From positions 2,176,001 through 2,240,000 of the forward strand of contig CAWETU010000001.1 in NCBI GenBank assembly GCA_963812135.1: 64,000 nt of DNA. The letters are read 5' to 3'. Each line of letters starts with the position of its first letter. Position 1 is the first letter of the stretch. The DNA comes from Vulcanimicrobiota bacterium (lineage in GTDB: Bacteria > Vulcanimicrobiota > Vulcanimicrobiia > Eremiobacterales > Eremiobacteraceae). This document shows positions 3,582-63,280 of the stretch, piece by piece. Below the pieces are notes generated by a model. The model was not told where the DNA came from. It did not search any database and saw nothing but the letters and a program-made list of their open reading frames with translations. A program made the translations under genes and the position numbers.

Positions 3582-4819
3582 CGCGCCTTGGCATCGTGAC
3601 GTCGGGTTTTCCCTACACGTCCAAAGAGACGTTCCTCGCGCCCGAGCTGCACGAGCTGTCGTCAGCGGCCGACGTCTTCGTGTATCCGGTGACGCCGAAA
3701 ACCGGTCGAATGAATTCGACCGCTACAAGTACGCCCGTGTTTATGCCGCTGATCGGCGCACGCGTCATCGCTGAGGCCGCGCGCGAGTGCGTCGAACGCC
3801 CTGCGCGCGTCGCGCGCGCGTTCCGAGCCGTCGCGCTCGCGGGTTCGTCGTGGAGCGTGCGCTTCAAGAACGCCGCGGTTTTCGCCAAAGCGCTGGCGGT
3901 GGCACGCGACATGCGCCGGCGGCGAATCCAACACGTGCACGCCTACTGGGCGTCGACGCCCGCCACGGTCGCTTATGCGATCGCGATGCTCAACGACATC
4001 CCGTGGAGCTTCACCGCGCATCGCTGGGATATCTACGAGAACAACCTGCTCGCCGACAAGGTGCGGCACGCCGTCTTCGTCAGAGCGATCTCGGAGCGCG
4101 CCCGCGCGACCGTGCTCGAACGCGTGGATCGCGCGTACGCGCACAAAGTGACCGCGCTGCATCTCGGCGTCGCGCGAGCCTGCGCAACAGACGGCGTCGA
4201 ATGCGTTCGCCCGTTCACCATGCTGTGCGCCGCCAACCTCGAGCCGGTCAAGGGACACACGACGCTCATCGAAGCGCTGCGCTTGCTCGCGATGCGCGGC
4301 GTCCAAGTGCGCTGCGTGCTCGCCGGCGACGGTTCGTTGCGTGGCGATCTCATGGCCGCGGTGCGCGCCGCGGGGCTCTCCGACCGCGTGACGTTCGCCG
4401 GCGCAGTGCCGCACGACGCGCTGCTGCGCGATATCGCGAGCGGCACCTACGATGCAGCCGTGCTCGCGAGCATCGAAACGCGCGACGGGCTGCACGAAGG
4501 CATCCCCGCGTTTCTCACGGAGGCGATGGCCGCCGGCGTGCCTTGCATCGCCACGCGAACCGGCAGCATCGGCGAGCTCATCGACGCTCGCTGCGGCGTG
4601 CTCGTCGAGCAGCGCGATCCGCAAGCGCTGGCCGATGCGATCGAGAAACTCATGAACGACGGCGAGACGCGCCGCGCGCTTGGCCGCGCAGCGCGGGCAC
4701 GCGTCGCGCGCGATTTCGCCGCCGAAACGCTCGCGCGGCGGCTACTGGCTCAGATCCAAGTGCAAGACAGCGCGGCGATGCGCCGCGAGATCGCGGAGCT
4801 CACCTCGGCACGATCGTAG
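3578..4819 (+). CDS. GT4 glycosyltransferase (WcaL-like)
   Basis: FPYTSKETF, HVHAYWA, FTAHRWDIY, EGIPAFLTEAMAAG; ATGA overlap with previous gene. Confidence 0.85.
   Translation: MTRLGIVTSGFPYTSKETFLAPELHELSSAADVFVYPVTPKTGRMNSTATSTPVFMPLIGARVIAEAARECVERPARVARAFRAVALAGSSWSVRFKNAAVFAKALAVARDMRRRRIQHVHAYWASTPATVAYAIAMLNDIPWSFTAHRWDIYENNLLADKVRHAVFVRAISERARATVLERVDRAYAHKVTALHLGVARACATDGVECVRPFTMLCAANLEPVKGHTTLIEALRLLAMRGVQVRCVLAGDGSLRGDLMAAVRAAGLSDRVTFAGAVPHDALLRDIASGTYDAAVLASIETRDGLHEGIPAFLTEAMAAGVPCIATRTGSIGELIDARCGVLVEQRDPQALADAIEKLMNDGETRRALGRAARARVARDFAAETLARRLLAQIQVQDSAAMRREIAELTSARS
3703..3727. repeat. GTAG-type REP-like palindrome, copy 1 (in-frame in GT4)
   Basis: CGGTCGAATGAATTCGACCGCTACA; encodes GRMNSTAT. 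Confidence 0.85.
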
Positions 4820-5982
4820 TGCTGGGTGACGTAGGCGAGGCCGCTGCGTCCGAATCGGCGGCGCTGCTCGCCGTCGGCGGCAAGCGTGCCGATCGCGCCG
4901 GCCAACGCGGAACCATCTTCAGGCGGCACCGCTAACCCGCCGCCCGACCGCTCGACGAAATCTCGCGCCTCTCCATCGGCGCACACGATCACCGGCGTGC
5001 CCAACGAGAGCGAATCGAACAGCTTGGTCGGCAGGCTGTCGACGATCCCGCGCTTGAGCGGCACGACGCACACATCGGCATCGCGCATGATCGCGGCAGC
5101 GATGTCGCGCGGCTGCGGTCCGAGCAGCTCCACGTTGTCGAGCCGTTCGCCCTCGACGCGGCGCGCAACCGAACCGCCCTCGGCGCCGCCGCCGACCAGC
5201 ACGAAACGATACTTGTGTTCGGCGCGCAGCTGATGCGCTGCGTCGAGCAGCACTTCGATGCCGGTGGCGACGCCCATATTGCCGGCGTAGGCGATGATGA
5301 ACTCGCCGTCTCCCCGCAAGATCGGCGTCGCCAACGCCGGTTCGAAGCGGTCGAATCCGTTGGGCGCGGTCACGACTTTCTCGGGGGCCACGCCGCGCGC
5401 GAGTATTTCACGCCTGCACGTGTCCGTCACGGTGAGGATGAGGCTTGCGCGGCGGTAGAGCGCGTCGGCCAGCGCGCCGACCATGCGCGCGACGGCGCTG
5501 TTCTTTTTCCAGATCCCCATCTTGATCGCCACATCGGGATAGACGTCGCGCACGTCGACGACGAGTCGCGCACGCCAGCGAGCGGCGGCGGCGAGCGCCG
5601 CGAGCCCGAGCGTGATCGGCGGTGTCGACACGAACACGACGTCGACCGGGTCGCGCCTGAGCGCGATGTGCGCGATGGCGCCGGCCGCGACCGAAAGCCA
5701 GTTCAACAGACGGTCGATCGCGCGCAGCCGCGGCGATGCATATGTCCAGACGCGCCGTACGGCGACGGCGTGGTCGCGCTGCTCCGATCGGTCGCGTTCT
5801 TGATAACCCGCGCCGACGACGCCGTCGGGAAACGATGGCTTGCCGGTCACGACGGTGACGTCGTCGCCTCCCGCAGCAAGCGCGCGCGCAGTGGCGCTCG
5901 CGCGGTGGCTCGCGGCGCCGGCCTCGGGCGGGTAGAACTGGGTGATGAGGACGATGCGACGACGCGCGGTCCGCTCTGCCAT
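4750..5982 (-). CDS. GT4 glycosyltransferase (WbuB-like)
   Basis: TQFYPPE, STPP, DVRDVYPD, YAGNMG, PTKLFD motifs; 3' end overlaps the convergent GT by about 70 bp. Confidence 0.88.
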   Translation of the reverse strand: MAERTARRRIVLITQFYPPEAGAASHRASATARALAAGGDDVTVVTGKPSFPDGVVGAGYQERDRSEQRDHAVAVRRVWTYASPRLRAIDRLLNWLSVAAGAIAHIALRRDPVDVVFVSTPPITLGLAALAAAARWRARLVVDVRDVYPDVAIKMGIWKKNSAVARMVGALADALYRRASLILTVTDTCRREILARGVAPEKVVTAPNGFDRFEPALATPILRGDGEFIIAYAGNMGVATGIEVLLDAAHQLRAEHKYRFVLVGGGAEGGSVARRVEGERLDNVELLGPQPRDIAAAIMRDADVCVVPLKRGIVDSLPTKLFDSLSLGTPVIVCADGEARDFVERSGGGLAVPPEDGSALAGAIGTLAADGEQRRRFGRSGLAYVTQHYDRAEVSSAISRRIAALSCTWI

Positions 5983-6042
5983 GACCCATGGGACTTGGGC
6001 AAGGCGCGTCGCGGGTTCCTGGAGACGTAGTACCTAGTGGCG

Positions 6043-7101
6043 CTAGTGCCCAGGCACCCGTTGGACGGCGGGCAAGGACAAGACCTCGAAGTCGCTGAGG
6101 TGCAGGTTGCCGAACGCGCTCAGGTCGCCACCGTTCCAGTGGTTCAGACCGTCTTGCGACTCGATGCCGTACAGCGCGTTGGAGCTGCCCGTGTCCGACA
6201 AGAACATGCCGTACGTTTTCAGCGCTGTTGTGATCGCTTTGGCTTGCGGTCCGAACGACGAGTCGTTGAACGACGCTTTGAGCCGGAGGTGCGCGCCATA
6301 CGGCAGCTGGTAGCTCACGTTGCCGCCGCTGAACGAGAGCCCGTCGGTGTCGCTAGCAGGCCGCACGAAGCTCCACTGCGCGAACGCATGAGCCGTGCCG
6401 CCCCAGTTGAGCGCGTGCTTGATGACGCCGCTCTGCAGCTCTTCCGATTTCACCGCGCCGGCGAACAACGACAGACCTGAGGCCATGCTGCTCGGCCAAC
6501 CGGCGGGCAGCGAGACGAACGGCTGCGTCAGATCCCACGACCAACCGCTGTATGCCGAGAACACGCCCGTCCAAGTCGCGCCGTAGGCCTCGAATAACCG
6601 GCAGTTGGGCGGGCTCACGACGAACACGATCGCGTGCTTATCCGAAAGCGGCTCGATCTTGAACGAAGGCATCCACGGAAACGGCGGATTTGCATTCCAC
6701 TCGTTCTGGTGAAACGCGACCAACGCGTGAACGGTGTTCGTAGGCGTCGAGGGCGTCGCGAGATTGGCGTACTCGACCCCGGTGCTCAGGTAGAACCCGC
6801 CCGAGTCCGCGGCGGCGGCCGACGCGATGTAGTTCGCCGAGTTCGCATCCACCGCGGCAGTCGCGATCGATTGGTTGTACCAATCGCCGGGCGTGAAGAC
6901 GTTGCAGCCTTGGTATACGGCAGCGCCGCTTGGACCACTCGTGGGGGAACTCGTTGGACCGCTGGTCGGGGAAGAGGAGGACGGTGGCTGGCCCGGGGGC
7001 GCCGCTGCGATCGGCATCCCAGGGGATGACGACCCGCCGCAGCCGCTGACGCAGACCAGCGCGGTCAGGAGCAAAAACAAAAACACGCCAAAAGCCTTCA
7101 C
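6043..7101 (-). CDS. Putative lipoprotein of unknown function, paralog B
   Basis: Signal ending CVSGC, Pro/Ser linker, domain YQGC.VFT.GD.YN...IKHAL...[11 protein letters not shown]...[13 protein letters not shown]. Confidence 0.75.
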   Translation of the reverse strand: MKAFGVFLFLLLTALVCVSGCGGSSSPGMPIAAAPPGQPPSSSSPTSGPTSSPTSGPSGAAVYQGCNVFTPGDWYNQSIATAAVDANSANYIASAAAADSGGFYLSTGVEYANLATPSTPTNTVHALVAFHQNEWNANPPFPWMPSFKIEPLSDKHAIVFVVSPPNCRLFEAYGATWTGVFSAYSGWSWDLTQPFVSLPAGWPSSMASGLSLFAGAVKSEELQSGVIKHALNWGGTAHAFAQWSFVRPASDTDGLSFSGGNVSYQLPYGAHLRLKASFNDSSFGPQAKAITTALKTYGMFLSDTGSSNALYGIESQDGLNHWNGGDLSAFGNLHLSDFEVLSLPAVQRVPGH

Positions 7102-7252
7102 GACCGCTCACCTGTCGCCTTTGCAAAGCTTAGCTCGTAGGAAACCCGCTAGCGTATACCCAGTTCTCTGGGTCCTAATCCTCAATAAGAAGACTTTTTT
7201 CCCAATTCCTGCCGCAGGATGCGCTTAGGCAGGGCGGCCCTGTCGTTGGGTC

Positions 7253-8557
7253 TTAATGCCCAGGCACGCGCTGCACGGCAGGCAAGGTCAAGACCTCGAA
7301 GTCGGTGAGGTGCAGGTTGGCAAGCGCGCTCAGGTCGCCCCCGTTCCAGTGGTTCAGCCCGTCTTGCGACTCGATGCCGTACAGCGCGTTGGAGCTGCCC
7401 GTATCCGCCAAGAACATGCCGTAGGTCTTGAGCGCGGTCGTGATCGCTTTGGCTTGCGGTCCGAACGACGAGTCGTTGAACGACGCTTTGAGCCGCAAAT
7501 GCGCCCCATACGGCAGCTCGTAACTCGGGTTGCCGCCGCTAAACAAGAGCCCATCGGTGTCGCTGGCAGGCCGCACGAAGCTCCACTGCGCGAACGCGTG
7601 GGCCGTGCCGCCCCAGTTGAGGGCGTGCTTGATGACGCCGCTTTGCAGCTCTTCCGACTTCACCGCGCCGGCGAACAACGACAGACCCGAAGCCATGCTG
7701 CTCGGCCACCCGGCTGGCAGCGAATAAAACGGCTGCGTCAGATCCCACGACCAGCCGCTATACGCCGACAAGATGCCGGTCCAGCTCGTGCCGTATGCCT
7801 CGAACACGCGGCACGTCGGCGGGCTCACCACGAACACCATCGCGTGCTTGTCAGAGAGCTGCTCGATCTTATACGGAGGCATCCACGGATACGGCGGATT
7901 GGCGTCCCACTCGTTTTGATGATACGACACCGTCGCGTGCACCGTGTACGTCGGCGTCAGCGCGGTCGCCAGGTTCGCGTACTCGTAGCCGGTGCTCAGG
8001 TAGAATCCGCTCGAGTCAACTGCGGCCGAGGAAGCGATAAAGTTCGCTGAGTTCGGATCCACCGCGAAGCCGGCGACCGGCTGATTGTAATAATCGCCGG
8101 CGGTGAACACCGTGCAGCCCTGATAGGTGGCCACGTTGCCCGGCGGGGGCGTGGCTGTCGGAGCAGGCGTGGGTGTCGCCGTCGGTTTCGGCGTCGGCGT
8201 CGGCGTGGGCGTGGGCGTCGCCGTCGGTTTGGGAGTGGGCGTCGGCGTGGGTGTAGGCGTCGCCGATGGTTTCGGAGTCGGCGTCGCGGTCGGCGCCGGT
8301 GTTGCCGTCGGAGCAGGCGTGGCGGTCGGCGCGGGCGTCGCGGTCGGCACGGGCGTTGCGGTCGGCGCGGGGGTCGCAGTCGGCTTCGGGGTCGGCGTCG
8401 GCGCTGGGGTCGCGGTGCCTTCCGGCGTGGGTGTCGGGTGGATGTTCTGCGGCGGCGCCTGGGCGGGAGACGGCATGACCGATGAACCCCCGCCGCAGCC
8501 CGCGATCAACAGCGCTGCGGTTAGGACCAATCCCGCGAGAATCCCAAGCTTTTTAAT
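7253..8557 (-). CDS. Putative lipoprotein of unknown function, paralog A, with long (PT/PTATPA)n linker
   Basis: LIAGC lipobox; same C-terminal domain as 6043..7101; probable ATT start at 8557, 6 nt after AGGAG. Confidence 0.75.
8140..8440 (-). repeat. Coding low-complexity Pro/Thr/Ala tandem repeats
   Basis: PTATPA and PTPT units in translation. Confidence 0.8.
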
Positions 8558-8807
8558 GACCGTCTCCTGTGCCCGTGCGGAAGCGCAGACCCGGTCATAT
8601 AGCTTTCGGTTGCACACGCCTGAATTAGGCCCAACGACCTAGGTATGTGCCGTTAGTCACTCCCGAGGTGCGAGCTGTCTAACCATTTGGCGTGTTTTCT
8701 GGTGCGGCGACGAGCCTACGAGGCGTGGGCCTTCGGTCTCTTGCCGCGTCCTCGTGCTTAGCTTAGTGTTGAACTCAAGCGCTTACGTCGTTGAAAGCAC
8801 CCTTCGC

Positions 8808-10253: not shown

Positions 10254-10256
10254 CCG

Positions 10257-12551: not shown

Positions 12552-12559
12552 GGTCGGAT

Positions 12560-29462: not shown

Positions 29463-30341
29463 ATGAAAACTCGGCTCGAAGGCATACTCCTCGGTCTGCT
29501 CAGCGTCCTCGCGTTCAGCGTCACGCTGCCGGCGACGCGCGTCGCCGTCCCCGAGTTGGGCGCCGCCTTCATCGGCGTCGGACGCGGCGCTGTTGCGGGC
29601 CTCATCGCGCTGCTGGTCGTCTTGGTGCTGCGCGAACCGTTGCCGGAGCGGCGCCATTGGAAGGGCCTCGCAATCGTCGCGCTCGGCGTGACCGTGGTCT
29701 TTCCGTTGTTCTCGGCGTTCGCGCTGCGCTCGCTGCCGGCCGCGCACAGCGCCGTGGTCGTCGGCTTGTTGCCGGCTGCCACCGCCGTGATGGCCGTGCT
29801 GCTGGTCCACGAACGGCCGCCGCTCGCGTTCTGGCTTGCAAGCGGGGCGGGCGTTCTCGCCGTGTTGGTGTTCGCGGCGGTCGAGGGCGCCGGGCGGCCG
29901 CAGCCCGCGGATCTTCTTCTGCTGATCGCGACGCTTGGCGGCGCGGTCGGTTATGCGGAGGGAGCCCGGCTCGCGCGCGAGCTTGGCGGCTTCCGCGTGA
30001 TCCTGTGGGCGCTCGTGTTGTGTTGGCCGTTTCTGTCGCTGGCGCTCGCGTCGGTTCTCGTCACGTCCGGCGTGCCGCATGGTTCGCCCGCCGCCTGGCT
30101 GTGCTTCGCGTACGTGGCGGTGATCAGCCAATTCCTTGCGTTCTTGCCGTGGTACCGCAGCCTCGTGATGGCGGGGGTGGCGTACACGAGCCAGCTAGGG
30201 CTTATCCAGCCGGTCCTCACGCTTGGCTGGTCGGCGCTCATCCTCCACGAGCACGTCGGCGCGTTGACGGTCGCTGCAGCCCTCCTGGTGATCGCCTGTG
30301 CCGCGGCGACGCAATGGACCCGGCCGCCGCTCACGGAATAG
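29463..30341 (+). CDS. EamA/DMT family transporter
   Basis: About ten TMs; FSVTLPATR, HERPP, QLGLIQPVLT. Confidence 0.88.
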   Translation: MKTRLEGILLGLLSVLAFSVTLPATRVAVPELGAAFIGVGRGAVAGLIALLVVLVLREPLPERRHWKGLAIVALGVTVVFPLFSAFALRSLPAAHSAVVVGLLPAATAVMAVLLVHERPPLAFWLASGAGVLAVLVFAAVEGAGRPQPADLLLLIATLGGAVGYAEGARLARELGGFRVILWALVLCWPFLSLALASVLVTSGVPHGSPAAWLCFAYVAVISQFLAFLPWYRSLVMAGVAYTSQLGLIQPVLTLGWSALILHEHVGALTVAAALLVIACAAATQWTRPPLTE

Positions 30342-30357
30342 CAACCGGCACACTGCC

Positions 30358-32607
30358 ATGAAAAAGCGGCTCGCATTTTTGGCGCTCGGGCTTCTCGCGA
30401 TCGTCACGATCGTCCGGGTATCGCCGTATGCGGTTGCGATCCATACGCGCGACATCGTGCAGGACTCTCAGGCGGTTGAGTTCACCGACCGCAACGGCTT
30501 GCCGCTCGGCACGCTGCTCGCGCGCGATCAAGAGCGTACCGCCTCGGTGCCGCTCGATCGCGTATCACCGAATTTCGTCCACGCGATCGTCGCCGCCGAA
30601 GATGCGCACTTCTATCAGAACGGCCCGGTCGATTACCGTGCGCTCGGACGATCCGCATATGAAATAGCGCGCTCGCATCATATCGTGAGCGGTGGTTCGA
30701 CGATCACCATGCAGCTTGCTCGCATGATCAGCGGCGCGCCGAGCACGGTGTTCGGCAAAGTCGAGCAGATCTGGACCGCATGGCGCGTGTCGGCAGGCAT
30801 GAATCGCGACGAGATCCTTGAGGGTTATGTGAACCGGTTGCCGATGGGCGGCAACGTCTACGGCGTCGAGGCCGCCGCGCGGACGTATCTCGGCGTCCCG
30901 GCCGCTGCGTTGGATCTCGCGCAAGCGAGCGCGCTCGCTGCGATTCCGAACGATCCCGTCGGTCTCGATCCATACGCGCATTGGCCCGCGCTCAAGGCGC
31001 GACAGGCCTATGTGTTGGACCGGATGATCAAGGCGGGATACATCACGCGCGACCAGGCTGACCGCGCACTCTCCGAGCAAGTGCTCTTGCAGCCGCGCAG
31101 CCGCGGGATCATCGCAGCGCCGCATTTCATGTTCTGGTTGGGCTCGCAGCTGCCGGCGCACACATCGCGCGTGCGCACGACGATCGACCGGCCGCTGCAA
31201 CAATTCGTCGAAACGCAGGTGCGCCAGGTGATCGGAACGCTTGGGTCACGCAATGTCCATCACGCGGCGGTGGTCGTCGTCGACAATCATACGGGCGAGG
31301 TGCTGGCATACGTCGGGTCGCCGGATTATTTCTCAGCTCGCCAGGGCCGCAACGATGGCGCCCAAGCGCTGCGCCAACCCGGCTCGACGCTCAAGCCGTT
31401 CTTGTATGAGATGGCGTTGGAGACGCGGGCCATCCACCCAAATACCATTCTCGCCGACGTGCCCGCGCGCTATGCGATTCCCGGCGCGAAGCTCTATAGC
31501 CCGACGGATTACAGCGAGACATTTCAGGGGCCGGTGCGCGTGCGCATCGCGCTGGCGGATTCGCTCAACGTGCCGGCGGTACGAGTGCTCGAAAAAGTCG
31601 GCGTGGCGAATTTCCTCGACCGGCTGCACCAGCTCGGCTTCACCCATCTCACCCACAACGCCGATTACTATGGACTTGGTTTGACGTTAGGCGGCGGCGA
31701 AGTGAGCTTGTGGGAGCTGGCGCACGGCTTTACGACCATCGCGCGCCACGGTTCTGCCATCGATTTCAAGACGTGGTTCCCCGACGGTCGAGTAAACTCG
31801 ACCGCTACAAACGTCGGGTCCACTGCGGCGTGGGAGCTCGTCACTGACATGCTGAGCGACGAGCACGCGCGAGCGCTCGCGTTCGGCGTGACGTCAGCGC
31901 TCGACGTACCGTTCGACGCAGCGGTGAAGACCGGAACGTCGTCGGACTTTCGCGACACGTGGACGGTCGGTTTCACGAGCGACTACACCGTGGCCGTGTG
32001 GGTCGGCAACTTCAACGGCGATCCAATGCGGCGCGTCTCCGGCGTGGCCGGCGCGGCGCCGCTGTGGAACCGCATCATGCTGCATCTGCACGAGCAGCGC
32101 GACCCGGCCCCGTTCCCCGCTCCTGCAGGGATGGTGGCTCGTCAAATCTGCGCGCAGACCGGCTACAAGCCGACGCCGGATTGCGACTCGGTGGTCTCTG
32201 AGTATCTCTGGCCCGAGGATCTGGTCACGTACGAGCGTCCGCAACGCGCTGCCGGTTTACCGCGTGAATACGACGAGTGGCTGGCGCTGCAGCAGCGCGC
32301 GCCGACGGCGCCGAGCGGCTTCCGCATCGTCGCGCCGCGGGAAGGCGATTCGTTCTTGGTATCTCCCAAACGCATCGGCGTGCAGCGCCTTGAGTTGCAG
32401 GCGCTTGCTTTGCCAGGTCAACGAATCGACTGGCGCCTTGACGGACTACGCATCGCAAGCGGCCCCTCGGTTTTCTGGCCGATGCGTCCCGGCCATTTCA
32501 CGATCGAGGCGAGCAGCGCCGGGCGCACGGATCGCGTTAGCTTCGACGTCGAATCTGGGGTGATCGCGCGTCAACCGCGCCCAGGATTCTCGTTGATTTC
32601 TCGCTAG
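30358..32607 (+). CDS. pbpC: Penicillin-binding protein 1C
   Basis: Transglycosylase (AED..F, GGSTITMQLAR), transpeptidase (GSTLKP, SLN, KTGTS), C-terminal BiPBP-like domain. Confidence 0.92.
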   Translation: MKKRLAFLALGLLAIVTIVRVSPYAVAIHTRDIVQDSQAVEFTDRNGLPLGTLLARDQERTASVPLDRVSPNFVHAIVAAEDAHFYQNGPVDYRALGRSAYEIARSHHIVSGGSTITMQLARMISGAPSTVFGKVEQIWTAWRVSAGMNRDEILEGYVNRLPMGGNVYGVEAAARTYLGVPAAALDLAQASALAAIPNDPVGLDPYAHWPALKARQAYVLDRMIKAGYITRDQADRALSEQVLLQPRSRGIIAAPHFMFWLGSQLPAHTSRVRTTIDRPLQQFVETQVRQVIGTLGSRNVHHAAVVVVDNHTGEVLAYVGSPDYFSARQGRNDGAQALRQPGSTLKPFLYEMALETRAIHPNTILADVPARYAIPGAKLYSPTDYSETFQGPVRVRIALADSLNVPAVRVLEKVGVANFLDRLHQLGFTHLTHNADYYGLGLTLGGGEVSLWELAHGFTTIARHGSAIDFKTWFPDGRVNSTATNVGSTAAWELVTDMLSDEHARALAFGVTSALDVPFDAAVKTGTSSDFRDTWTVGFTSDYTVAVWVGNFNGDPMRRVSGVAGAAPLWNRIMLHLHEQRDPAPFPAPAGMVARQICAQTGYKPTPDCDSVVSEYLWPEDLVTYERPQRAAGLPREYDEWLALQQRAPTAPSGFRIVAPREGDSFLVSPKRIGVQRLELQALALPGQRIDWRLDGLRIASGPSVFWPMRPGHFTIEASSAGRTDRVSFDVESGVIARQPRPGFSLISR
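31785..31809. repeat. GTAG-type REP-like palindrome, copy 2 (in-frame in pbpC)
   Basis: CGGTCGAGTAAACTCGACCGCTACA; encodes GRVNSTAT. Confidence 0.85.
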
Positions 32608-32622: not shown

Positions 32623-33921
32623 CTAGCCGACCGGGTTCGCGCCGTGGCATTTCTTGAATTTCTTCAAACTGCCGCATGGGCAGAGCTCGTTGCGGCCGGC
32701 TTTCGCGAACGCCGCTTCTTGCTCGGCGGCGAGCAGCGTCATGACGCCCTCCGCCTCTTCCCCTCGTTTTATGAGATCGCCGATGAGCCGCATGGGTCCG
32801 TCGATGTGATGGAAGAACGCTTTGTAGCCCTCGCATAAGTAGTTCAGCCCGGGCTCGCCGCTGGGCGTGTTGATGAAACGGTTTTTCGGACATTCGCCGT
32901 TGCAGGCGAAACGCACATCGCATTCGCGGCAGTACTGCGGCAGCGATTCGAGCTTCGCGCTTCCGAACGCGCGCTGGAAATCCGAATCGAGCATCTCTCG
33001 CATCGGGCGCACCCCGATATTGCCGAGCAAGTACTTGGGTTCGACGAAATGATCGCAGGAATAGAGATCGCCGTTGTGTTCGAGCGCGAGCCCGGTGCCG
33101 CACGTCGCATCGAAAACGCACATGCCGGACGGCATCCCCAGCCAGCTTCTCGCCGCGCCCTCGAAGGTCTGCACGAAAACACGTCCGACGTCGTTGCGCA
33201 CCCACTCGTCGAAGATCGCGATAAGAAAGTCGCCCAGCTGTTTCGGCGTCACGGATCGTTCTGAGACTTTCGAACCCTCCTGATAGAGCGTCCGCCCATC
33301 ATCGTTCACGCGCTCGATGACCGGGATGAACTGGATCCAGGTCGTGCCGACTTCGTCGCGCAAGAAGCGATAGACGTCAAGCGGGTGATCGGCGTTCGTC
33401 CGGTTGACGGTGGTGAGGATGTTGTACTCGACGCCGTTCTTTTGGAGCAGACGTAGGCCGCGCATGACGTTGTCGAACGTGCCGCGACCGCCCTTATCGA
33501 CCCGATTGGCATCGTGGAGTTCGCGCGGCCCGTCGATGCTCAGCCCAACGAGATAGTCGTTCGCCTTGAAGAACTCGCACCACTCATCGTTCAGCAATGT
33601 GCCGTTCGTCTGGAGGGTGTTTTCGAACACCATGCCCGGCCTCTTGTGCTTGTTCTGAAATTCGATCGCGCGGCGGTAAAAGTCAACTCCCATGATCGTC
33701 GGCTCGCCGCCTTGCCAGGCGACCGTGACGTGATCGCTGCGGTGCCCGTCGATCAGCTGCTTGATGTAGGTCTCCAGCATGGCGTCGTCCATGCGGAAAC
33801 GGCTGCCGGGATACAGCTGCTCCTTATCGAGGAAAAAGCAATAGGAGCAATCGAGATTGCATATGGCGCCTGCCGGTTTCGCCATCACGTGAAATCGGGG
33901 TGGGGTCCGTTCTTGTATCAC
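32623..33921 (-). CDS. Anaerobic sulfatase maturase (radical SAM/SPASM) with C-terminal SEC-C motif
   Basis: AKPAGAICNLDCSYC, WQGGEPT, QTNGTLL, YSCDHFV, C..C...FACNGECPK, CPCGSLKKFKKCHG. Confidence 0.92.
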   Translation of the reverse strand: MIQERTPPRFHVMAKPAGAICNLDCSYCFFLDKEQLYPGSRFRMDDAMLETYIKQLIDGHRSDHVTVAWQGGEPTIMGVDFYRRAIEFQNKHKRPGMVFENTLQTNGTLLNDEWCEFFKANDYLVGLSIDGPRELHDANRVDKGGRGTFDNVMRGLRLLQKNGVEYNILTTVNRTNADHPLDVYRFLRDEVGTTWIQFIPVIERVNDDGRTLYQEGSKVSERSVTPKQLGDFLIAIFDEWVRNDVGRVFVQTFEGAARSWLGMPSGMCVFDATCGTGLALEHNGDLYSCDHFVEPKYLLGNIGVRPMREMLDSDFQRAFGSAKLESLPQYCRECDVRFACNGECPKNRFINTPSGEPGLNYLCEGYKAFFHHIDGPMRLIGDLIKRGEEAEGVMTLLAAEQEAAFAKAGRNELCPCGSLKKFKKCHGANPVG

Positions 33922-34036
33922 GCTCTTAGGGTAGTATCCACCCCCCTCGAGGCGTAAGAAGTCCTTGAGAAAAAGTGGTGAGGGGAGTCTCGGAGATGGC
34001 ACAAGGCAGCCGCTCGCAAAGGTAGAATCGCGCGCG

Positions 34037-34795
34037 ATGCAACTGTGGACCGCCACGCTGCCCGCATTCTTAGCCTCATTCGTCGAGTTCGTCGAAGCGC
34101 TGACGGTCGTGCTCGCCGTCGGCGTGACGCGCGGCTGGCGCTCGGCGATACTCGGGTCGGTCGCAGCGGTGGCGCTTCTCGGATTGCTCGTACTGCTCTT
34201 CGGCCCGCTGCTGGCCCGCTTCCCGATCGCGTGGCTGCAGATCGCCGTCGGGTGGTTGCTCATCTTGTTCGGGATGCGTTGGCTGCGCAAAGCCATACTG
34301 CGTGCCGGTGGCGCGATCAGTTTACACGACGAGACCAGCGCATTCGACCAACAAAGGCGAGAGTTGGAGAAATCGGACGCCGGGGGGTTGCGTGGTCTGG
34401 ACCCGGTCGGATTCCTCGCGTCGTTCAAAGCGGTGACGCTCGAGGGGCTCGAGGTGGTGTTCATCGTGATCGCAGTCGGCGCCACCGCGAACGCGCTCAT
34501 TCCGGCGAGCGCGGGTGCCGCGGCGGCCGGCGTGGTCGTGATCGGAGCGGGCGCGGCACTGCAGCGACCGCTCTCGCGTGTACCCGAGAACAGCCTCAAG
34601 TTCGCGGTCGGCGTCTTGCTGTCGGCGTTCGGCACGTTCTGGTTCGGCGAGGGGCTCGGCATGAAATGGGTGGGCGAGGACCTCGCCATTCTCGGGCTTA
34701 TCCTCGGCTATCTTCTGACTGCGTTGATCGCGATTGCGCTGTGCCGGCGAATGATCAGAGCAGACGGTCGAATAAACTCGACCGCTACAACCTGA
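34037..34795 (+). CDS. COG4280-like membrane protein (GDT1/FTR1-like putative cation transporter)
   Basis: Two acidic motifs EFVEALT and EGLEVVF; RVPENSLKF.VG..L..FGTFW. Confidence 0.75.
   Translation: MQLWTATLPAFLASFVEFVEALTVVLAVGVTRGWRSAILGSVAAVALLGLLVLLFGPLLARFPIAWLQIAVGWLLILFGMRWLRKAILRAGGAISLHDETSAFDQQRRELEKSDAGGLRGLDPVGFLASFKAVTLEGLEVVFIVIAVGATANALIPASAGAAAAGVVVIGAGAALQRPLSRVPENSLKFAVGVLLSAFGTFWFGEGLGMKWVGEDLAILGLILGYLLTALIAIALCRRMIRADGRINSTATT
34765..34789. repeat. GTAG-type REP-like palindrome, copy 3 (in-frame at C-terminus of COG4280-like gene)
   Basis: CGGTCGAATAAACTCGACCGCTACA; encodes GRINSTAT just before T-stop. Confidence 0.85.
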
Positions 34796-41643: not shown

Positions 41644-41787
41644 GCGATCAAAACCCGACGCCACTGCCTCGCCGCAAACTCTCACCGGGTTTGGTGGCGT
41701 TGTTGTGGGCGCTGCGCTCTGTATGTCGTGCTCGCCGTACCGCTCGTCTTCTACGCGTTTATCAAAGCGCTACACCAAGCGCCGTAA
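41640..41787 (+). CDS. Small single-TM protein coupled to NRAMP (+1 frameshift near 41718)
   Basis: ATGA overlap; removing one base gives MSDQNPTPLPRRKLSPGLVALLWALRLYVVLAVPLVFYAFIKALHQAP*. Confidence 0.6.
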
Positions 41788-41788: not shown

Positions 41789-41814
41789 CGGTCGAATAAA
41801 TTTCGACCGCTACA
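41789..41814. repeat. GTAG-type REP-like palindrome, copy 4 (intergenic, between convergent stops)
   Basis: CGGTCGAATAAATTTCGACCGCTACA. Confidence 0.85.
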
Positions 41815-44800
41815 TCAGGGCGAGACGATCAGCGTCGATGAGGCCGTTCGGCCGAATTCTTCCGGCGCGTACTGCAACCTTGCTTCGCCTCCCGGCCACG
41901 AGTATGTTCCTGGCGTCACCGAGCGCACGAGGTAATGGAAGCTATACACCCCGGCCTCGAGGTGATCGGCATATGCGACCACGCGGTCTTTATAGATCTG
42001 CTGATAGTTGATCTGCCAGCTGTCGCTGTGCGCTTGGAAGTAACGCGTCGATGTCTGGAACGACGTGTCGACGGCTTCCAAACCGGCGGGCAGCGGATCG
42101 GTGATGACCAGGTGCTCGACCGGATGATCGGCGATCACCTCAAGGCCTATGTCGTAGACCGCCGACGGCGCCAGCGTGAGCGCACCCGCGGGAAGCCCCA
42201 GACCGATCGATCGTATCACGGTCTCCGAGTTGGCCGCGCGTATGTCGCGCGTGATGCGCAACCCGTTGAGGATGCCGGGCTGATCGCCCGTCAGGCGGTA
42301 GCGATATGCGAGGACGTAGTGTAGCGTGCCTGTGCCGGTCTTCGAGAGCACGACGTTGCTCGGCCCCTTGGGCAGCTGCGCCATCGGCACGCTCACCACG
42401 CGCAGCGGATTGCGATAGCCGTTGAAGCGCTCGGATGCCCACTGCTTGCCCGCGACCGTCATGATCGCCGTGAAGTCCGCGTTGTTGGGCTGTGCGCGCG
42501 AGTAGTCCACCAGCGCGGTGAGCGCTGCCGCATTGTCGTAGTACTCCGGCCACGAACCGCGCACGCGTTGCGCGATCACCACGCGCACAAGTTTGTCTTG
42601 GAGTTCCATCTGCGCATTGCGCGCGACGAACAAACGCAGCGCGGCCGCCTGTGCGATCGTCGGCGTGCTCAGCCAGCCCACGCGACCCGGCAAGTTGAGC
42701 GACGCGTTGCGCCCGGTCTCGTAGATCGATTGTTCGATCTTCAGCGTCATCGCCGTCGCCTGCGCGCTCCACGCCGGGAAGCGCGTGAGATAGCGCGCGA
42801 GGTTGATCTGGTCGACAGTGTCGAGATCGTCGCGTGCGGCGTAGATGTCGCTGAGGTAGTCGTTGCGCGCTTCACCCAGATCCGCCAGCGCGAGGAGCGA
42901 GCGCAGGCGCAGTTCGTCCGCGCACAGCTGATTGCAATATGGGATCTCGTCAGCCTTCGCGATGGTGTGCTTCAGATACGCGCGCACTTTTGCGAGCATG
43001 CCCTCGTCGACCGCTAGCCCCGCGCTCTGCGTGCGAGCGAGCGCTTCGCCGGCGTACGGCGTCACCCACGGGTCCGAGTCCTTGCCGGTCGGCCACGACG
43101 GGAAGCCGCCGTCCGGCAATTGCATCTTCTGCAGTCGCAGCACGTCGTTCGCCGCGGCCGTCACAGGATGGAAGTCTGGGTAGATCTGGCCGTAGCGCGT
43201 CGCGAGGATCTGCATGTTCGCCGTGATCATGAGCTGGCTCGCGATCGGCTCGAGGAACGGCAGGTCCTCATCTTCATCGAGGTCGGCTTTTGCGGCCGAC
43301 GTGAACTCGGGCAGCAAGATGCTCGCGAGCTCGACGTCGAGCCCGCCCAGGCTCGTGTCGACCTTTTGGTCGACGTTGATCGGCACCGTGCTCGACGTGT
43401 TGGTCGTGCTCGCTTCGATGGCGGATTCGACCAGCGGCAGCGTGCGCAGTTCGAGCGGCACCTCGAACGCGTCGCTCAGCGTACCGAGTTTCGTGGTGAA
43501 GCGCACGCTTGTCTTGCCGAGGCCGGTCGCGGTCATCGCGAAACGATACGCCTGCGTGCCCGACTGCACCGACGGCGAGCTCGACGTGAACTGCGATTGC
43601 TGCCCGTTGTTGACGAACGCGAGCGGGCCGCTGAGCTGGCCCTGGATCGAGAGCTGGCCGTTGAGATTGTCCGCGTTGGTGACCGTGATGCCGGCCGAGA
43701 ACTGATCGCCGGGTCGCGCGAATTGCGGCAGCACCGCGTTGGTCAGCAGCGGCTTCGAGGTGATGAAGGTCGCGTCGCCGCCGCCGAACCGCCAGTTCGC
43801 GCTGGAGCTGCCCGAGCCGCTGACCGCCACGGCGAGGACGCGCCACGTCGTCAGATCGTCCGGCAGCGTGAATGTGACGCTGCCGTTGCCCGACGCATCG
43901 GTGAGCAGTGCGCCCTTGTAGAATGCGAGCGGCTGGAAGTTCGTGCGAATGCGCGTGCCGGCGGCGCCTTCGGAAGGTCCGCCGCCATAGCCCCATCCCT
44001 TTTGCAGCGGCGATGCGAAGGGCCGCAGCACGACGTTCGGACGGTTGTCGGAGAACCGCGTCGGGATCGGCTGCACGGCGAACACCGTGTCGATGAGACT
44101 CGGCGGCCGGTAGCCGGACAGTTGCAGAATCGCTTCGTTGACCACCATGACCGCGAACTCGCCGCGGATCGGCTGGCCATTCGCGTCGCGCATCTGGAGG
44201 TGCACGGTCTGCGATTGACCGGGTTCGAGTTTCGCTTTGGCGGGCGTCAGCGTGACTTTGAGCCGACGGTCGTCGAGATTGACCGTGAGCGGCGCGAAGC
44301 CGGTGCGCGACAGGCTATCGAGACTGTCGGGCACGGATGCTGAGAGCGGCGCTCCGGTGCGCACGAGCACGGCCTCGACCGCGGCATTGGGGAGCATGTC
44401 GGGCGTGACGGTGAAGCTGACGCGCGGCGCGCCGCCCGAAACCGTCACGACCTTTTGGAACAGCGGCTTGTATCGCACGACGCTCAGGTAGAGCTGGCCC
44501 GCGGGGTATGGCGATTCGATGAGCGCCGTCGCGGTATCGCCGGGCTTGTACTTGGTCTTGTCGAGCTTGACCGTCAGCCGGCCGGGATTTTCGTTGCCCC
44601 AATCGACGATGTCGGATCCGGCTGCCCAGACCTCGAGGTCGGTCGCGGTGGCATCGTCTTTGGCGCCGGCGAGATTGGCGCGAATGCGATAGACGCCCGA
44701 GCTGGGCGGCGTGAAGGTGATTTTTTGCGGCGTTGTGCCGGAGGTGACGTCGGACTGTGCGACCGTCTTGTATTCGACTTGCCAGCGATCGTTGGAACTG

Positions 44801-49713: not shown

Positions 49714-49723
49714 TTGATCGGCC

Positions 49724-56652: not shown

Positions 56653-57317
56653 GGGCTATCGACGACCGGTTCGACCGTCGCGTAAGGATTGGGTTCGGGC
56701 GTCGGCGTGCCCGGAGTCGGGGTCGTCGGCTCTTCGGTCGGTTGCGCTGGTGCGACCGGACGCGGCTGCGCTCCACTCGAGCTGCCGACCATGCCGCACA
56801 ACGTCGTCAACGACTGACGCGCTTCGGGCAGCGACGGCTGCGTCATCAGACGCGTGTAGACGGCGAACCATGCGTATCCGTTGAGGAGCGTCGACATCTG
56901 TTCGTACAGGACCTGATGCCCGTGGATGACGCTGGAGTACGAGAAGTAGTGCGCGGGCCGTCCACCGCACGTCGTCGTGTTCTCGTCGGCGCCGAGCTGG
57001 AAGCCCGGCAGGCCTCTGGCGAGCATCGCGATCGCGTGTTGCGCGTAGGCCGATGAGGAAAGCTGCGTGGCTTCACGGCCGACGACGATGTTCTGGCGGA
57101 AGTCGGTGTCGCCGGGGTGCACCCATACGCCGAGCATGCCGCGCGGCGGCTGCGTGGACTGCCATCCGGCCGGGGGCAGGAAAGGCAGGCTATCGCCGAA
57201 GACCCGCGTTGCGATGCCCGCTATGCCGACGATCGCAAAGCAAAGCGCGCACGCCGTCGCAAGACGGCGGCGCGCAATGAGGCTCAACTCCCGAACGTGA
57301 ATGCCCCTCGTGCGCAT
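56649..57317 (-). CDS. Secreted hypothetical protein (possible PsbP/DcrB-like)
   Basis: PPAGW, FRQNIVV, TTCGGRPAHY, LTTLC, Pro-rich tail; start uncertain. Confidence 0.6.
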   Translation of the reverse strand: MRTRGIHVRELSLIARRRLATACALCFAIVGIAGIATRVFGDSLPFLPPAGWQSTQPPRGMLGVWVHPGDTDFRQNIVVGREATQLSSSAYAQHAIAMLARGLPGFQLGADENTTTCGGRPAHYFSYSSVIHGHQVLYEQMSTLLNGYAWFAVYTRLMTQPSLPEARQSLTTLCGMVGSSSGAQPRPVAPAQPTEEPTTPTPGTPTPEPNPYATVEPVVDSP

Positions 57318-59410: not shown

Positions 59411-59414
59411 CTTC

Positions 59415-59801
59415 TTACTGAGAAGCGCTGTCCGAGACGACGATCGTGCCGGTCATGTTCGGATGGTACGAGCATACGTACGAGTACGTCCCCGCTTTGG
59501 TGAACGTGAACGAGTACGTCATGCCCTTATCGAGATTGTGAGAATCGAACGCGCCGCCTGAATCGGTGGCGGTGTGCGAGATCCCATCGTCGTTACGCCA
59601 CTGCACGGTCGTGCCCGGCTTGATGGTGAGGCTTTGCGGTTTGAACGCGAAATCGTTGATGACGACAAGCACGGGTGCGCTGGTCGCACCGGCCATGGGG
59701 CTCGACGTGTCGGCGGACGCGCCGTTCATCGCGGCGAGCAGTATGATGGCGGTCGTGCCGGCGAGCGCGGCGAGCAGTCGGGCTGCGTGGCGAGCGATCA
59801 T
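59415..59801 (-). CDS. Plastocyanin/amicyanin-like type-1 copper protein
   Basis: AAGGAGG RBS, signal peptide, F.P..L....G.TV.W.N.D...HT, YVCSYHPNMTG. Confidence 0.92.
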   Translation of the reverse strand: MIARHAARLLAALAGTTAIILLAAMNGASADTSSPMAGATSAPVLVVINDFAFKPQSLTIKPGTTVQWRNDDGISHTATDSGGAFDSHNLDKGMTYSFTFTKAGTYSYVCSYHPNMTGTIVVSDSASQ

Positions 59802-59887
59802 TCAATCCTCCTTGATTGCATTGTTCCAGTCACATAACGTTCATGCTGCGCGCGGCGTCGCGGTTCCTTAAGGTACGCGCCTTTCTT

Positions 59888-61087
59888 TCAGGCGCTTTTC
59901 ATCCGGCGCGAGCGGACAAGCGGTACGAGCAGCACGAGGCCGAGCGCGCAAAGAGTGCCAGCGGAGCCGAACGCGACAACCGGTCCCGCGGCCTGCCACA
60001 GCAACCCAACGGTCGCGCTCGAAAAGAAATCGCCGATCCCGTTGATCGCGGCTAATACGCCAAAGCCGGTGCCACGGCGTTGCGCGGGCAGCAGCTCGGT
60101 GGCAAACGTGCCTTCCATCGGCTCGAGGATCGCGAATCCGGTGGCCGCGAGCACAAACGTGATGATGACGACCGGAATCGACATCGACCCAAAGGCGAGC
60201 AGCACGCCCACGCTTGTGAACAACGCGAACGCCGCGAGCAACATCCGTCCGGTGCCGATGCGCTCGCTGAGCACGCTCGCCGGAAATGCGAGCGATGCGT
60301 ACAGCACGTTGTGGCCGAGGTAGAGCGCCGTCGCGAACACGATCGCCTGCGCCGGCGTGACATACGGTGCGAACGCTCGCATGGCGACGAGCACGAGCAA
60401 CGTCGCGGAGAAATTCCCCAGCCCGAAGACACCCGCGCTGAGCAGGTAGCGCTTGAAATCGCCAGGCAGGTTCGCGAGCGCGATGGGCAAGCGTTCGCGC
60501 GGTGGGGTCGTGCGCGGCCTTTCCTTGACAAAGATGTACATCGCGCCGGCGAGGATGCCGGGGATGAGGCCGAACAGGATGGCCTGCCGCAGCGGCACGT
60601 GCATGGCGATGAACGTGATCGCCAGCGCCGGACCGATGACGGCGCCGACGGTGTCGAGCGCGCGCTGGAAGCCGAACGCGCGGTTCACGTACTTCGGATC
60701 GGTGTCGTCCACTAGCAGCGTGTCGCGGATGGGGCTGCGGAACCCGCGGCAGATCCAAGCAAGCGAGCGTAACGCGATCACCATGGGAATTGACGTCGCG
60801 AACGCGATCGCAGGCATGAATAGTCCGACGCCGAGGTAGCCGGTGGCGGTCCATGCGCGTCGGCGCCGCGTGTGATCTGCGAGCTGACCACCCCACAGCT
60901 TGAACGCCGCTGCAAGCGCGTCAGCGAGTCCCTCGACCAGCCCGAGCGCGGCGGCACCACCGCCGAGGGTTGCCAGAAACGCGGGCAAGAGAGGGATGAT
61001 CAGCTCGTAACACGCGTCGGAAAAAAGACTCGCAACGCCGATGGCCAAGACCGACGTCGTCAGCCAGGTACGTGTTGCGGGCTTCAT
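59888..61087 (-). CDS. MFS transporter
   Basis: About 12 TMs; SLFSD, G.LAD...RR, RSPIRD, AFGFQRALD..GA. Confidence 0.9.
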   Translation of the reverse strand: MKPATRTWLTTSVLAIGVASLFSDACYELIIPLLPAFLATLGGGAAALGLVEGLADALAAAFKLWGGQLADHTRRRRAWTATGYLGVGLFMPAIAFATSIPMVIALRSLAWICRGFRSPIRDTLLVDDTDPKYVNRAFGFQRALDTVGAVIGPALAITFIAMHVPLRQAILFGLIPGILAGAMYIFVKERPRTTPPRERLPIALANLPGDFKRYLLSAGVFGLGNFSATLLVLVAMRAFAPYVTPAQAIVFATALYLGHNVLYASLAFPASVLSERIGTGRMLLAAFALFTSVGVLLAFGSMSIPVVIITFVLAATGFAILEPMEGTFATELLPAQRRGTGFGVLAAINGIGDFFSSATVGLLWQAAGPVVAFGSAGTLCALGLVLLVPLVRSRRMKSA

Positions 61088-61157
61088 CGGGTCCGCATAT
61101 CATCCGTCCGCCGCGAACTCCTTTGCACACGTGATCTTTCTTCAAGGAGCCCACGCA

Positions 61158-61673
61158 ATGTCTAGGCGCAACCTGCCCATCGCCTTCGCGGTTCTTACCG
61201 CCTTGCTTCCGCTGGCGGCGTTCGCGTATACGCCCCCGTCCTTCACGCCGTTGACGCTCAAGAAACCCGATCTCACCCTCGGCGGCATCAAGACCACAGC
61301 CATGCTGCCATGCTCGCAAGGAGTGCCGAGGTTGCGCTTCATCGTCACCGTTCAGAACGTCGGAAGGGCTGACTACAGTCCCGCCCCGGCAAATCAAGCG
61401 CTCGCCGTCAAAGGGCCTTCGCACCTTGTCGTGGCGGATCTGCCGTTCATCGCGGCGGGCGGATCGTCGCAAGTAGAGCTCGACTACGCGCCGCAACCCT
61501 TGGAGAACGCGGCGTATCCGGATACGACGTTCAAATTCTCGGTGAACTCGAGCGGTCGCATCATCGAGTCGAATTACGACAACAACGTCAAGACGATCCA
61601 CGTGATGGTCAAGCCGGTCTGCCCGTCGCCGTCTGCTCCGGCGATGTCGCCGCCTGCGTCGCCTGGGCATTAG
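61158..61673 (+). CDS. Secreted CARDB-like Ig-fold protein
   Basis: AAGGAG RBS, signal peptide, KPDL, VTVQNVG, IIESNYDNN. Confidence 0.75.
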   Translation: MSRRNLPIAFAVLTALLPLAAFAYTPPSFTPLTLKKPDLTLGGIKTTAMLPCSQGVPRLRFIVTVQNVGRADYSPAPANQALAVKGPSHLVVADLPFIAAGGSSQVELDYAPQPLENAAYPDTTFKFSVNSSGRIIESNYDNNVKTIHVMVKPVCPSPSAPAMSPPASPGH

Positions 61674-63280
61674 GAACGGTCGAGTAAACTCGACCGCTAC
61701 GTTTCTGGTTGCGGTATGGTGCTTGCTCGGTGGATGCGGGCGCGCGGGGCCGCCGCCGACGGTCGATCACAGCGTCATCTCGTTCAACGTCTCAGAAGAT
61801 CCGCATTCGCTTAACCCGATCCTGGCACGCAGCGACGACGAGCGTCAGCTCGCGCACCTGACCTTCGACATGTTGCTCGACGTCGACGCGCACGGACAGC
61901 CGGTGCCTGCGCTCGCGACTGTCGTGCCGACGCTGTCGAACGGCGGCGTGAGCGCGGACGGCCGGCGCATCACCTATCACCTGCGGCGCGGCGTGCGCTG
62001 GCAGGATGGGGCGCCGTTCACGTCACGCGACGTGCGCTTCACGTGGCGAGCGGTGATGGATCCGCGTAATGCGGTGGCAAGCACCCGCGGCTATGATCTG
62101 ATCGAGGCCATCGATACCCCCGATCCGCTCACCGCCGTCGTACATCTCAAGCGGCCGTGGGCGCCTGCAGTTGAGACTCTCTTCACGTATGGCGCGCATC
62201 CGATTCCGATTTTGCCGGCACATCTGCTGGAGAACGCGGATCGAACGGGGTGGGCTGCGTTCGATCGCGCGCCGGTCGGCACGGGCCCGTTCGTGCCGGT
62301 GAGCTGGGAGCGCTCGACGAGGATCATCTACCGAGCCAACCCTCACTACTATTTGGGCGCGCCTCGCGTCGAACCAGATCGCCGCGATGGTAATCCCGGA
62401 TTTCAACACCGATCTGACGATGTTGCGCGCAGGGCAGCTCGATTGGTCGCTGCTCTCTCCGGCGCAGCGCCTGGCGTTGGGGACGGAGCCGTCACTGCGC
62501 ATCGTGTACGCGCCGTTCGCGGGTTTTGGCGCGCTCTCGTTCAACCTGCGGCGCCCGCCGTTCGACGACGTCCGCATGCGCCGCGCCATCGCGCAAAGCA
62601 TCGATCGACGGCGCTTGAGCGACGCGATCACGCGCGGCCAGTACCCAGTCACCGATAGCGATCAGCCACCGTTCTCGTGGGCCTACGATCCAACAGCTCG
62701 ATTGCCGGCGTACGATCCGACGGCTGCGGACCACGCGCTGGATATGTTGGGTTGGAAGCGGCAGGCCGACGGCATGCGCGCGAAGGACGGGCGGCGACTC
62801 GAAATCGCGTTCGCCGTTTTCCCGGAAGGGGATACAGCGGTGCGCACGGCCGTGTACGTCCAGCAAATGCTGGCGGCGCGCGGCATCGACGTCACGATCA
62901 AAAAAGTGACGTTGGCGCAATTTTACTTGCCGGCGGCGCTCGGCGGCCTGTTGATGAGCGGCAAGTATGACGTCGCGTATTTCGCATGGCGCACCGGCGA
63001 GGACCCGGACGATTCGGATCTAGTCACCTGTTCGGGCGCTTCGAACTACGCGGGATATTGCGAGGCCGCGCTTGACGCGCTCGAGCTTCAGGCGCTTTCG
63101 ACACCCGACCAATCGCGACGCCGGACTTTGTATTCGGAAATCCAAGGGACGCTCGCGCGAGACGTCCCCTATCTTTATCTGTACGCGCCGACGTACGGTT
63201 ACGCCGTCAAGAATCAGCTGCGCGGCTTCGAGCCGACGCCGTTCTCACCCACATCGAATTCGTGGCGCTGGCAGCGATAG
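61669..63280 (+). CDS. Family 5 (peptide/nickel) ABC substrate-binding lipoprotein (+1 frameshift near 62374; start non-canonical or uncertain)
   Basis: LGGC lipobox, SLNP, P.LA..VP, LR.GV.WQDG.PFTS.DV.FTW, PVGTGPF, D.RMRRAIA..IDR, NYAGYC. Confidence 0.85.
61677..61701. repeat. GTAG-type REP-like palindrome, copy 5 (in frame with SBP signal peptide)
   Basis: CGGTCGAGTAAACTCGACCGCTACG; reads GRVNSTAT in the SBP frame. Confidence 0.85.

Follow-up and report, generated by a model that had tools for sequence, protein, structure and literature searches.

How does a short DNA palindrome come to lie, in one and the same reading frame, within unrelated genes? The question is raised by a stretch of 64,000 nucleotides (hereafter the window) of a Vulcanimicrobiota bacterium, contig CAWETU010000001.1 of assembly GCA_963812135.1, positions 2,176,001 to 2,240,000 of the forward strand (G000:C1:2176001-2240000), in which a small hairpin headed by GTAG occurs five times. 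The genome, G000, measures 2.79 Mb in 6 contigs, has 64% G+C and is 98.4% complete. We find that the element very probably belongs to a lineage-specific family of GTAG-type repetitive extragenic palindromes (REPs), most copies of which lie at gene ends or between genes, and some of which would be translated as part of the proteins that harbor them.

The pattern CGGTCGARTRAAYTCGACCGCTAC is matched exactly four times in the window, each time on the plus strand (copies 1, 2, 3 and 5; Table 1), and never in 100 shuffles of the window. A single additional T in the loop brings copy 4 to 25 nucleotides. All five sites share the 11-mer TCGACCGCTAC without a mismatch. A first-pass annotation, made from the letters of the window, had listed these five copies; all are present where it placed them, and none is expected by chance. 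On the minus strand each copy reads GTAG followed directly by a hairpin of 8-9 bp, as had been proposed, and the plus-strand RNA of the five copies folds at -11.2 to -13.8 kcal/mol with z-scores of -3.0 to -6.0. The covariation claimed for the stem is likewise present in the sequences; pair 7 is A-T in copy 1 and G-C in copies 2 and 5, and a pair of copy 3 that is A.C on the plus strand is G.T on the GTAG strand, the only strand on which it can pair. Three host genes in the window are read in the frame GGT CGA RTR AAY TCG ACC GCT ACN; they encode a glycosyltransferase, the product of pbpC and a permease. The codons supplied by the element are rare in this genome (per thousand, CGA 4.5, ATA 1.5, GTA 1.8, ACA 2.8 and GCT 6.8). 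No Rfam family has a match within the window.

Is the motif a peculiarity of this window? Genome-wide, the strict pattern finds 126 copies in G000 and its reversed control none, the head GTAGCGGTCGA occurs exactly 146 times, and a relaxed definition, which accepts a head with at most one mismatch followed by the hairpin, yields 190 instances. The genome-wide count that the first-pass annotation had suggested thus shows a motif that is by no means rare outside the window. The family unit is 24 nucleotides, or eight codons, long and consists of the GTAG head and the 8-9 bp hairpin, with the consensus tGTAG-CGGTCGAAT-TT-ATTCGACCG. This length is shared by 165 of the 190 instances, 57 of which are identical to a master sequence, tGTAGCGGTCGAATTTATTCGACCG. 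The four head bases are kept in 160 (G), 151 (T), 157 (A) and 161 (G) of the 165. Across 64 distinct variants, Watson-Crick pairing runs from 83 to 100% depending on the stem pair, and is inflated at the first six pairs, as the instances were chosen for having a hairpin. Compensatory changes are found at pair 8-21 (T-A to C-G in 6 variants), at pair 12-17 (A-T to G-C in 14 variants, to C-G in 3 and to T-A in 2) and at pair 13-16 (T-A to C-G in 5 variants). Beyond a T at position -1 and a T or A at +1 the flanks are unconserved, indicating that the unit is a single hairpin and not part of a larger element. Adjacent copies mostly have direct orientation or lie far apart, and inverted pairs are few. 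A GTAG (or degenerate GKAG) head immediately next to a stem-loop of 6-9 bp, a high and dispersed copy number, compensatory stem changes and a mainly extragenic position near gene 3' ends are what characterize GTAG-type REPs, and the assignment made by the first-pass annotation is borne out by these features together with the empty reversed control. Along contig C1, copies of both orientations occur between 0 and 0.97 Mb, and nearly all of those between 0.99 and 2.37 Mb are on the minus strand; density peaks at 1.8-2.3 Mb. Genes switch strand near 0.3 Mb and again near 1.55 Mb, and dnaA lies at 0.307 Mb; the regional orientation tracks neither the switches nor dnaA, and GC skew is weak.

Among 31 related genomes the strict GTAG-headed pattern occurs 126 times in G000, 50 times in G006, 42 in G005 and 18 in G001, with 0-2 occurrences in the other 27 and none for the reversed control. 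When GGAG heads are counted along with GTAG heads, G000 has 137 copies (126 GTAG, 11 GGAG), G006 159 (50, 109), G005 150 (42, 108) and G001 129 (18, 111), and their congeners G002, G004 and G003 have 6, 3 and 2. From these counts, the family is confined to part of one genus. The exact consensus is present in only one other GTDB species genome, that of a Candidatus Eremiobacteraeota bacterium. The type of head is specific to the genome even at shared intragenic sites, where it is GTAG in G000 and often GGAG in G005, G006 and G001.

To what extent has the family entered coding sequence? Frames were scored with a codon-usage model trained on 732 long open reading frames (ORFs) and with Pfam, so that the gene calls are those of our own model and not of a curated annotation. 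G000 has 24 REP-like sites within ORFs whose frame is open and coding to either side of the site, 5 of which resemble chance look-alikes; a local coding-frame analysis of the 190 instances places 17 in frame within genes and the rest at gene ends or between genes. Thirteen internal copies share one orientation and one frame, the one pointed out by the first-pass annotation, and read G-R-[IVML]-x-S-T-A-[TP]. Its view of a REP family that colonizes coding sequence and adds a peptide derived from the DNA element is supported by them. Eleven of the 13 lie in 10 ORFs supported by Pfam: PBP1C, Glycos_transf_1, GT21, SelB, NuoC, ValRS, a DUF255 thioredoxin-domain protein, FabH, a rubrerythrin-VIT1 fusion, which holds two tandem copies, and DUF4129; the two other host ORFs have no Pfam match. 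These include copies wholly inside ORFs of more than 120 aa that have a known function and an open frame. Internal copies in other frames are found in PurL (SGRIHST), an RluD-like synthase (RSSKLDRD), two E2-type proteins and an amine oxidase. Some 16 kb before the start of the window, three REPs form an array in the GRINSTAT frame.

The frames are not used equally. Two of the six include a stop codon; when thresholds are tightened, the internal copies in the four that are free of stops number 10, 3, 1 and 0 (chi-square p = 6e-4). The reading S-G-R-I-Y-S-T of the opposite orientation, which is also polar, has only 0-2 internal copies. Copies just downstream of gene ends favor the opposite orientation (32 vs 14) to that favored by internal ones (13 vs 4), and the internal bias is thus not a general, transcription-related one. 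Within genes the sites of insertion are variable loops or domain linkers, and at least eight internal copies are located between Pfam domains. At gene ends the element supplies stop codons: in G000 the head's TAG closes 23 ORFs and the loop's TAA closes 8, and in 12 ORFs the REP encodes a short tail. Two REPs serve as the end of convergent genes on either side.

Comparison with orthologues shows what the sites look like when the element is not there. At all four loci compared (pbpC, NuoC, FabH and ValRS) the REP occupies a loop whose length varies, and the REP-poor species, G002, G003 and G004, are without the peptide at these loci. The pbpC copy is present in G000, G005 and G006 and missing in G004, G002 and seven genomes of other genera, which were compared for pbpC alone; two of the seven (G016 and G010) are flagged unpublished, and the conclusion is independent of both. 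The NuoC copy does not differ between G000, G005 and G006, although the adjacent loop cannot be aligned; G001 keeps stems and head around a loop nine bases longer, and G002 and G003 have no REP. FabH carries the REP in G000, G005 and G006, with extra half-copies alongside, and lacks it in G002, G003 and G001; its loop here has 31 residues, compared with 7 in solved FabH chains. For both FabH and NuoC, alignment with chains of solved structure puts the insert in a loop. ValRS carries it in G000 and G001, and is shorter by 7 residues in G002 and G003. In ValRS of G005 the element lies inverted at the same place and reads GAVDFIRP, with the total loop length seen in G000. At the site of window copy 1, the sole genus orthologue found (G003, 58% identity) has unrelated sequence of equal length, and for the host of copy 3 no orthologue was found in five genus genomes. 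The comparison with orthologues that the first-pass annotation had called for thus gives close relatives devoid of the peptide, and not distant ones that keep it with synonymous changes that break the hairpin, an outcome which, like rarity of the motif elsewhere, would have spoken against its proposal.

Shared copies differ at 9 of 80 third-codon positions within the REP, vs 284 of 839 four-fold sites in the flanks (Fisher p about 1e-5, from species pairs that are not independent). Given that the rare codons of the REP are kept better than neighboring synonymous sites, it is the DNA that is conserved and not the peptide. Half-copies, comprising the left arm or the right arm with the head, lie beside full copies in FabH, pbpC and NuoC of several species, and give repeats that read, for example, ...STAT...SSTAT and DGRGNDGR.

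Independent sequence data contain the element as well. The exact consensus is found in 119 stretches of metagenome contigs of the Joint Genome Institute (JGI). In the 80 stretches that were fetched, the GRINSTAT frame accounts for 7 internal copies and the remaining frames for 2, 1 and 0; FabH and NuoC loci are among them, and some may be orthologous to sites in G000. The pbpC copy is bridged by contigs of public runs from three studies; the runs listed as containing the sequence include no RNA run. Two of the bridging contigs come from diverged strains, with a 6-nt insertion just before the REP, and one may stem from the source sample. Among the public-run contigs no joint skips the REP, as an allele of pbpC lacking it would, though contigs of this kind cannot show absence. 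One metagenome contig has an ORF that runs through two REPs in inverted arrangement and reads VAVEFIRP-SA-GRVNSTAT.

How could such a distribution have arisen? We propose that the family was spread by a REP-associated tyrosine transposase (RAYT) of the HUH Y1 type, which would since have been lost or have escaped assembly, and whose gene persists in sister genera. Internal copies would be translated as part of the host protein, with the peptide a by-product of the DNA element. At 24 nt, the unit leaves the frame intact wherever it inserts. That the reading G-R-I/V/M-N-S-T-A-T, with its polar and small residues, prevails would be due to purifying selection acting on the peptide, and perhaps to a bias in insertion as well. 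In the sister genera G009, G018 and G015, ORFs of 158-178 aa of the HUH/Y1 type are flanked by inverted hairpins headed GTAG- or GGAG-CGGTCG..., in which the head and the start of the stem are the same as in the G000 REP.

Several observations weigh against this proposal. The first-pass annotation had suggested looking for a Y1 HUH RAYT gene flanked by inverted copies of the element; none was found in G000, where the PF01797 profile has no match and tblastn with four RAYTs from relatives returns only spurious ones. The best of these (E = 3e-4) was rejected as a RAYT, its ORF being a GT4 glycosyltransferase. Nor was a RAYT found in the REP-rich G005 and G006, and a protein search returned none in G005, G006, G002 and G003. 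The profile identifies a RAYT in 11 of the 31 related genomes, within the genus only in G001, and this one (G001:C3:117700-122000, positions 1850-2482) is flanked by a different hairpin, TGTAGGGGCCGATCT...; its flanks are inverted copies of a second GTAG hairpin, TGTAGGGGCCGATCTTTAGATCGGCCC, the head of which occurs only twice in G000. A head-outward inverted REP pair on C5, the sole one with a suitable gap, encloses an ORF of 295 aa that by eye looks band-7/SPFH-like and was rejected as a RAYT. No RAYT was seen within 1.5 kb of the metagenome copies at the 80 fetched loci, which does not show absence. The assemblies being 97-98% complete, absence of a RAYT from this genome is likely, not proven. 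The REP population here is moreover large and homogeneous with no RAYT found, unlike the decay of REPIN populations after RAYT loss described in the available part of bioRxiv 10.1101/2021.07.10.451892. Tolerance of the peptide alone does not explain why the polar S-G-R-I-Y-S-T reading is nearly unused, and that internal copies are translated within host proteins is something we infer from their frames. Four features are not accounted for: the scarcity of copies in this second polar frame, the bias in orientation by region, the head type that goes with the genome, and the copy that lies inverted in ValRS.

Could the host itself be keeping the hairpins? It may be that the REP family survived its transposase and is now kept up by the host, with a RAYT-independent mechanism, gene conversion or a trans-acting factor, renewing or selecting the hairpins, which could have a function of their own, for instance as a pause or structural signal at domain boundaries. 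This suggestion draws on the hairpin and its rare codons being kept across species in the essential genes for ValRS, FabH, NuoC and PBP1C while the loops around them diverge too far to be aligned, and on the preference for one orientation and frame, the genome-specific heads at shared sites and the one copy flipped in place. We regard it as improbable, yet worth stating.

A closely related possibility, to which we give marginally less weight still, is that a functional hairpin, a structured signal in DNA or mRNA such as a protein-binding site or a translational pause made of hairpin and rare codons where domains meet, is maintained by the host with no RAYT involved, the intragenic copies being kept by selection on the nucleic acid. 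The nucleotide-level conservation at REP third positions is in its favor, as are the NuoC REP that is identical in three species within an unalignable loop, the failure to find a RAYT in three REP-rich genomes, the copies between Pfam domains and the preferred orientation relative to the gene. However, loops and linkers tolerate any insertion, and the conservation may reflect turnover or gene conversion, as the inverted ValRS copy of G005 and the genome-specific GTAG and GGAG heads at shared sites suggest; REP-poor congeners, for their part, do well without the element at the same sites.

That GR[IVM]NSTAT is a conserved protein motif, the likeness at the DNA level following from selection on the peptide, has very little left to recommend it. 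The same octapeptide does occur in at least ten unrelated proteins supported by Pfam; yet most of the roughly 190 copies lie outside that frame of any coding ORF, the codons are among the rarest of the genome and unchanged between species, close orthologues lack the peptide, and ValRS of G005 carries the inverted element with an altogether different reading. An assembly or sequencing artefact, a thought prompted by likely indel errors elsewhere in the assembly (the split GT4 and SBP genes described below), is scarcely credible for an element that is shared by four genomes of separate assembly and recurs in a further GTDB genome record, in 119 JGI metagenome stretches and in short-read contigs from three studies that bridge the pbpC copy.

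We return to the family as REPs spread by a RAYT, and ask whether such a system has been seen before. The first-pass annotation had regarded it as an undescribed system, a claim that does not hold, because intragenic GTAG REPs are listed with the residues they encode in the available part of PMC3733652 (Di Nocera, De Gregorio and Rocco 2013, BMC Genomics 14:522). That text sorts REPs into GTAG and CGTC super-families and states that GTAG heads often donate TAG stop codons. REPs wholly inside ORFs are most numerous in Opitutus terrae, with about 70, and the hosts include tRNA synthetases, 2-oxoacid dehydrogenase E2, FGAM synthase, a NADH-oxidoreductase subunit and pseudouridine synthases; the authors argue for neutral insertion in linkers or loops. 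The likeness is close. In both cases a short hairpin tagged by GTAG is mostly extragenic near 3' ends and donates TAG stop codons, and a subset lies wholly in ORFs of known function, with 7-8 residues per unit and a recurrent peptide per family. The REPs described here differ in belonging to another sequence family and to another, uncultured phylum (Candidatus Eremiobacterota), and in being dominated by singletons, whereas more than half of the inserts reported there are dimers or groups. This REP family is a further example of translated GTAG REPs already described and not a new system; what is unusual here is that no RAYT is found in three REP-rich genomes, although sister genera have one flanked by the same REP type, and that one frame is strongly preferred. 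The portion of PMC3733652 at hand contains no analysis of frame bias, of synonymous-site conservation between orthologues or of REP-rich genomes devoid of a RAYT.

Other known systems match in part. With REP/RAYT systems, or REPtrons (TnpA_REP of E. coli, the RAYTs of Pseudomonas and Stenotrophomonas), the family has in common the GTAG head, the hairpin, the compensatory stems and the high copy number. An ORF of HUH/Y1 type between inverted copies of the same REP type, as in a REPtron, is seen in the sister genera only; unlike in REPtrons, where the flanked RAYT is in the same genome, none is detected in G000, G005 and G006. A dominant master sequence recalls REPINs (Bertels and Rainey 2011). 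Unlike REPINs, which are inverted doublets with a conserved spacer, the elements here are single hairpins.

Rickettsia palindromic elements (RPEs) provide a last comparison. RPE-1 units are much longer than the REP of this study. According to the available part of PMC3733652, RPEs are palindromic repeats that lie in frame in functional genes and are translated; they resemble our element in being in frame within genes, where for the latter translation is predicted. The short RPE-4 and RPE-6 of R. conorii are assigned there to the CGTC-tagged class and not to the GTAG-tagged one.

The window copies illustrate the range of sites (Table 1). Placement within or in frame with genes, as given in the first-pass annotation, stands for copies 1-3, which are in frame in their host genes, and for copy 5, which is in frame with the SBP_bac_5 ORF; it does not extend to copy 4, which is not genic. 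An ORF of 869 aa at 2210-4819 is a composite of the gene that hosts copy 1 and an out-of-frame read-through of the preceding GT4 gene. That preceding gene, at 2477-3581, has a Glyco_transf_4 N-terminal domain followed by an arginine-rich stretch that looks out of frame, a frameshift or an assembly indel. Copy 3 is the source of the last 10 codons of the OFeT_1/COG4280-like permease. An ORF on the minus strand, 32623-34689, has radical-SAM, SPASM and C-terminal SEC-C matches that start at residue 275; its first ~240 residues, which overlap the permease gene of the opposite strand, are probably not coding. Copy 4 occupies a gap of 27 nt, between a TAA ending at 41787 and the stop codon of an alpha-2-macroglobulin gene at 41815-41817. 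The frame that copy 5 shares with the SBP_bac_5 ORF includes a lipobox-like FLVAVWCLLGGC. From the upstream stop to the REP the sequence offers no ATG, GTG or TTG, and for want of a canonical start codon the translation of copy 5 is not established. The SBP_bac_5 gene is itself split over two frames, 61723-62658 and 62387-63280, by a frameshift or an assembly indel, with the first ORF covering the first 148 of 368 profile positions.

Table 1. REP copies of the window and the genes that host them (strand of a REP copy: that of its GTAG head)
Feature	Position	Strand	Description
REP copy 1	3703..3726	- (GTAG strand)	GRMNSTAT, residues 41-48 of GT4-type glycosyltransferase
Host of copy 1, glycosyltransferase, 411 aa	3584..4819	+	Glycos_transf_1 match, residues 210-372
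REP copy 2	31785..31808	- (GTAG strand)	GRVNSTAT, residues 497-504 of PBP1C, within transpeptidase domain envelope
Host of copy 2, pbpC	30298..32607	+	Transgly, Transpeptidase and BiPBP_C domains
REP copy 3	34765..34788	- (GTAG strand)	C-terminal tail ...DGRINSTATT* of OFeT_1/COG4280-like membrane protein
Host of copy 3, predicted permease, 276 aa	33965..34795	+	OFeT_1 match, residues 35-249
REP copy 4, 25 nt	41789..41813	- (GTAG strand)	Extragenic, between convergent stop codons
REP copy 5	61677..61700	- (GTAG strand)	Between CARDB-domain ORF (end 61673) and SBP_bac_5 ORF

What does the family mean for the organisms that carry it? Translated GTAG REPs are hereby extended to an uncultured soil phylum, with 16 in-frame copies in or beside housekeeping genes. 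For annotation, a stretch reading GR[IVM]NSTAT is to be taken as derived from the repeat and not as a protein motif, and at about 30 gene ends the stop codon comes from the repeat. For the dynamics of REPs and RAYTs the genus provides a ready-made comparison, as it comprises four REP-rich species, three of them without a detectable RAYT, and three REP-poor ones, with the cognate RAYT kept in sister genera. If the absence of the RAYT holds in closed genomes, these species would put to the test the view, published in bioRxiv 10.1101/2021.07.10.451892 as far as its available part goes, that REP populations decay once their RAYT is lost.

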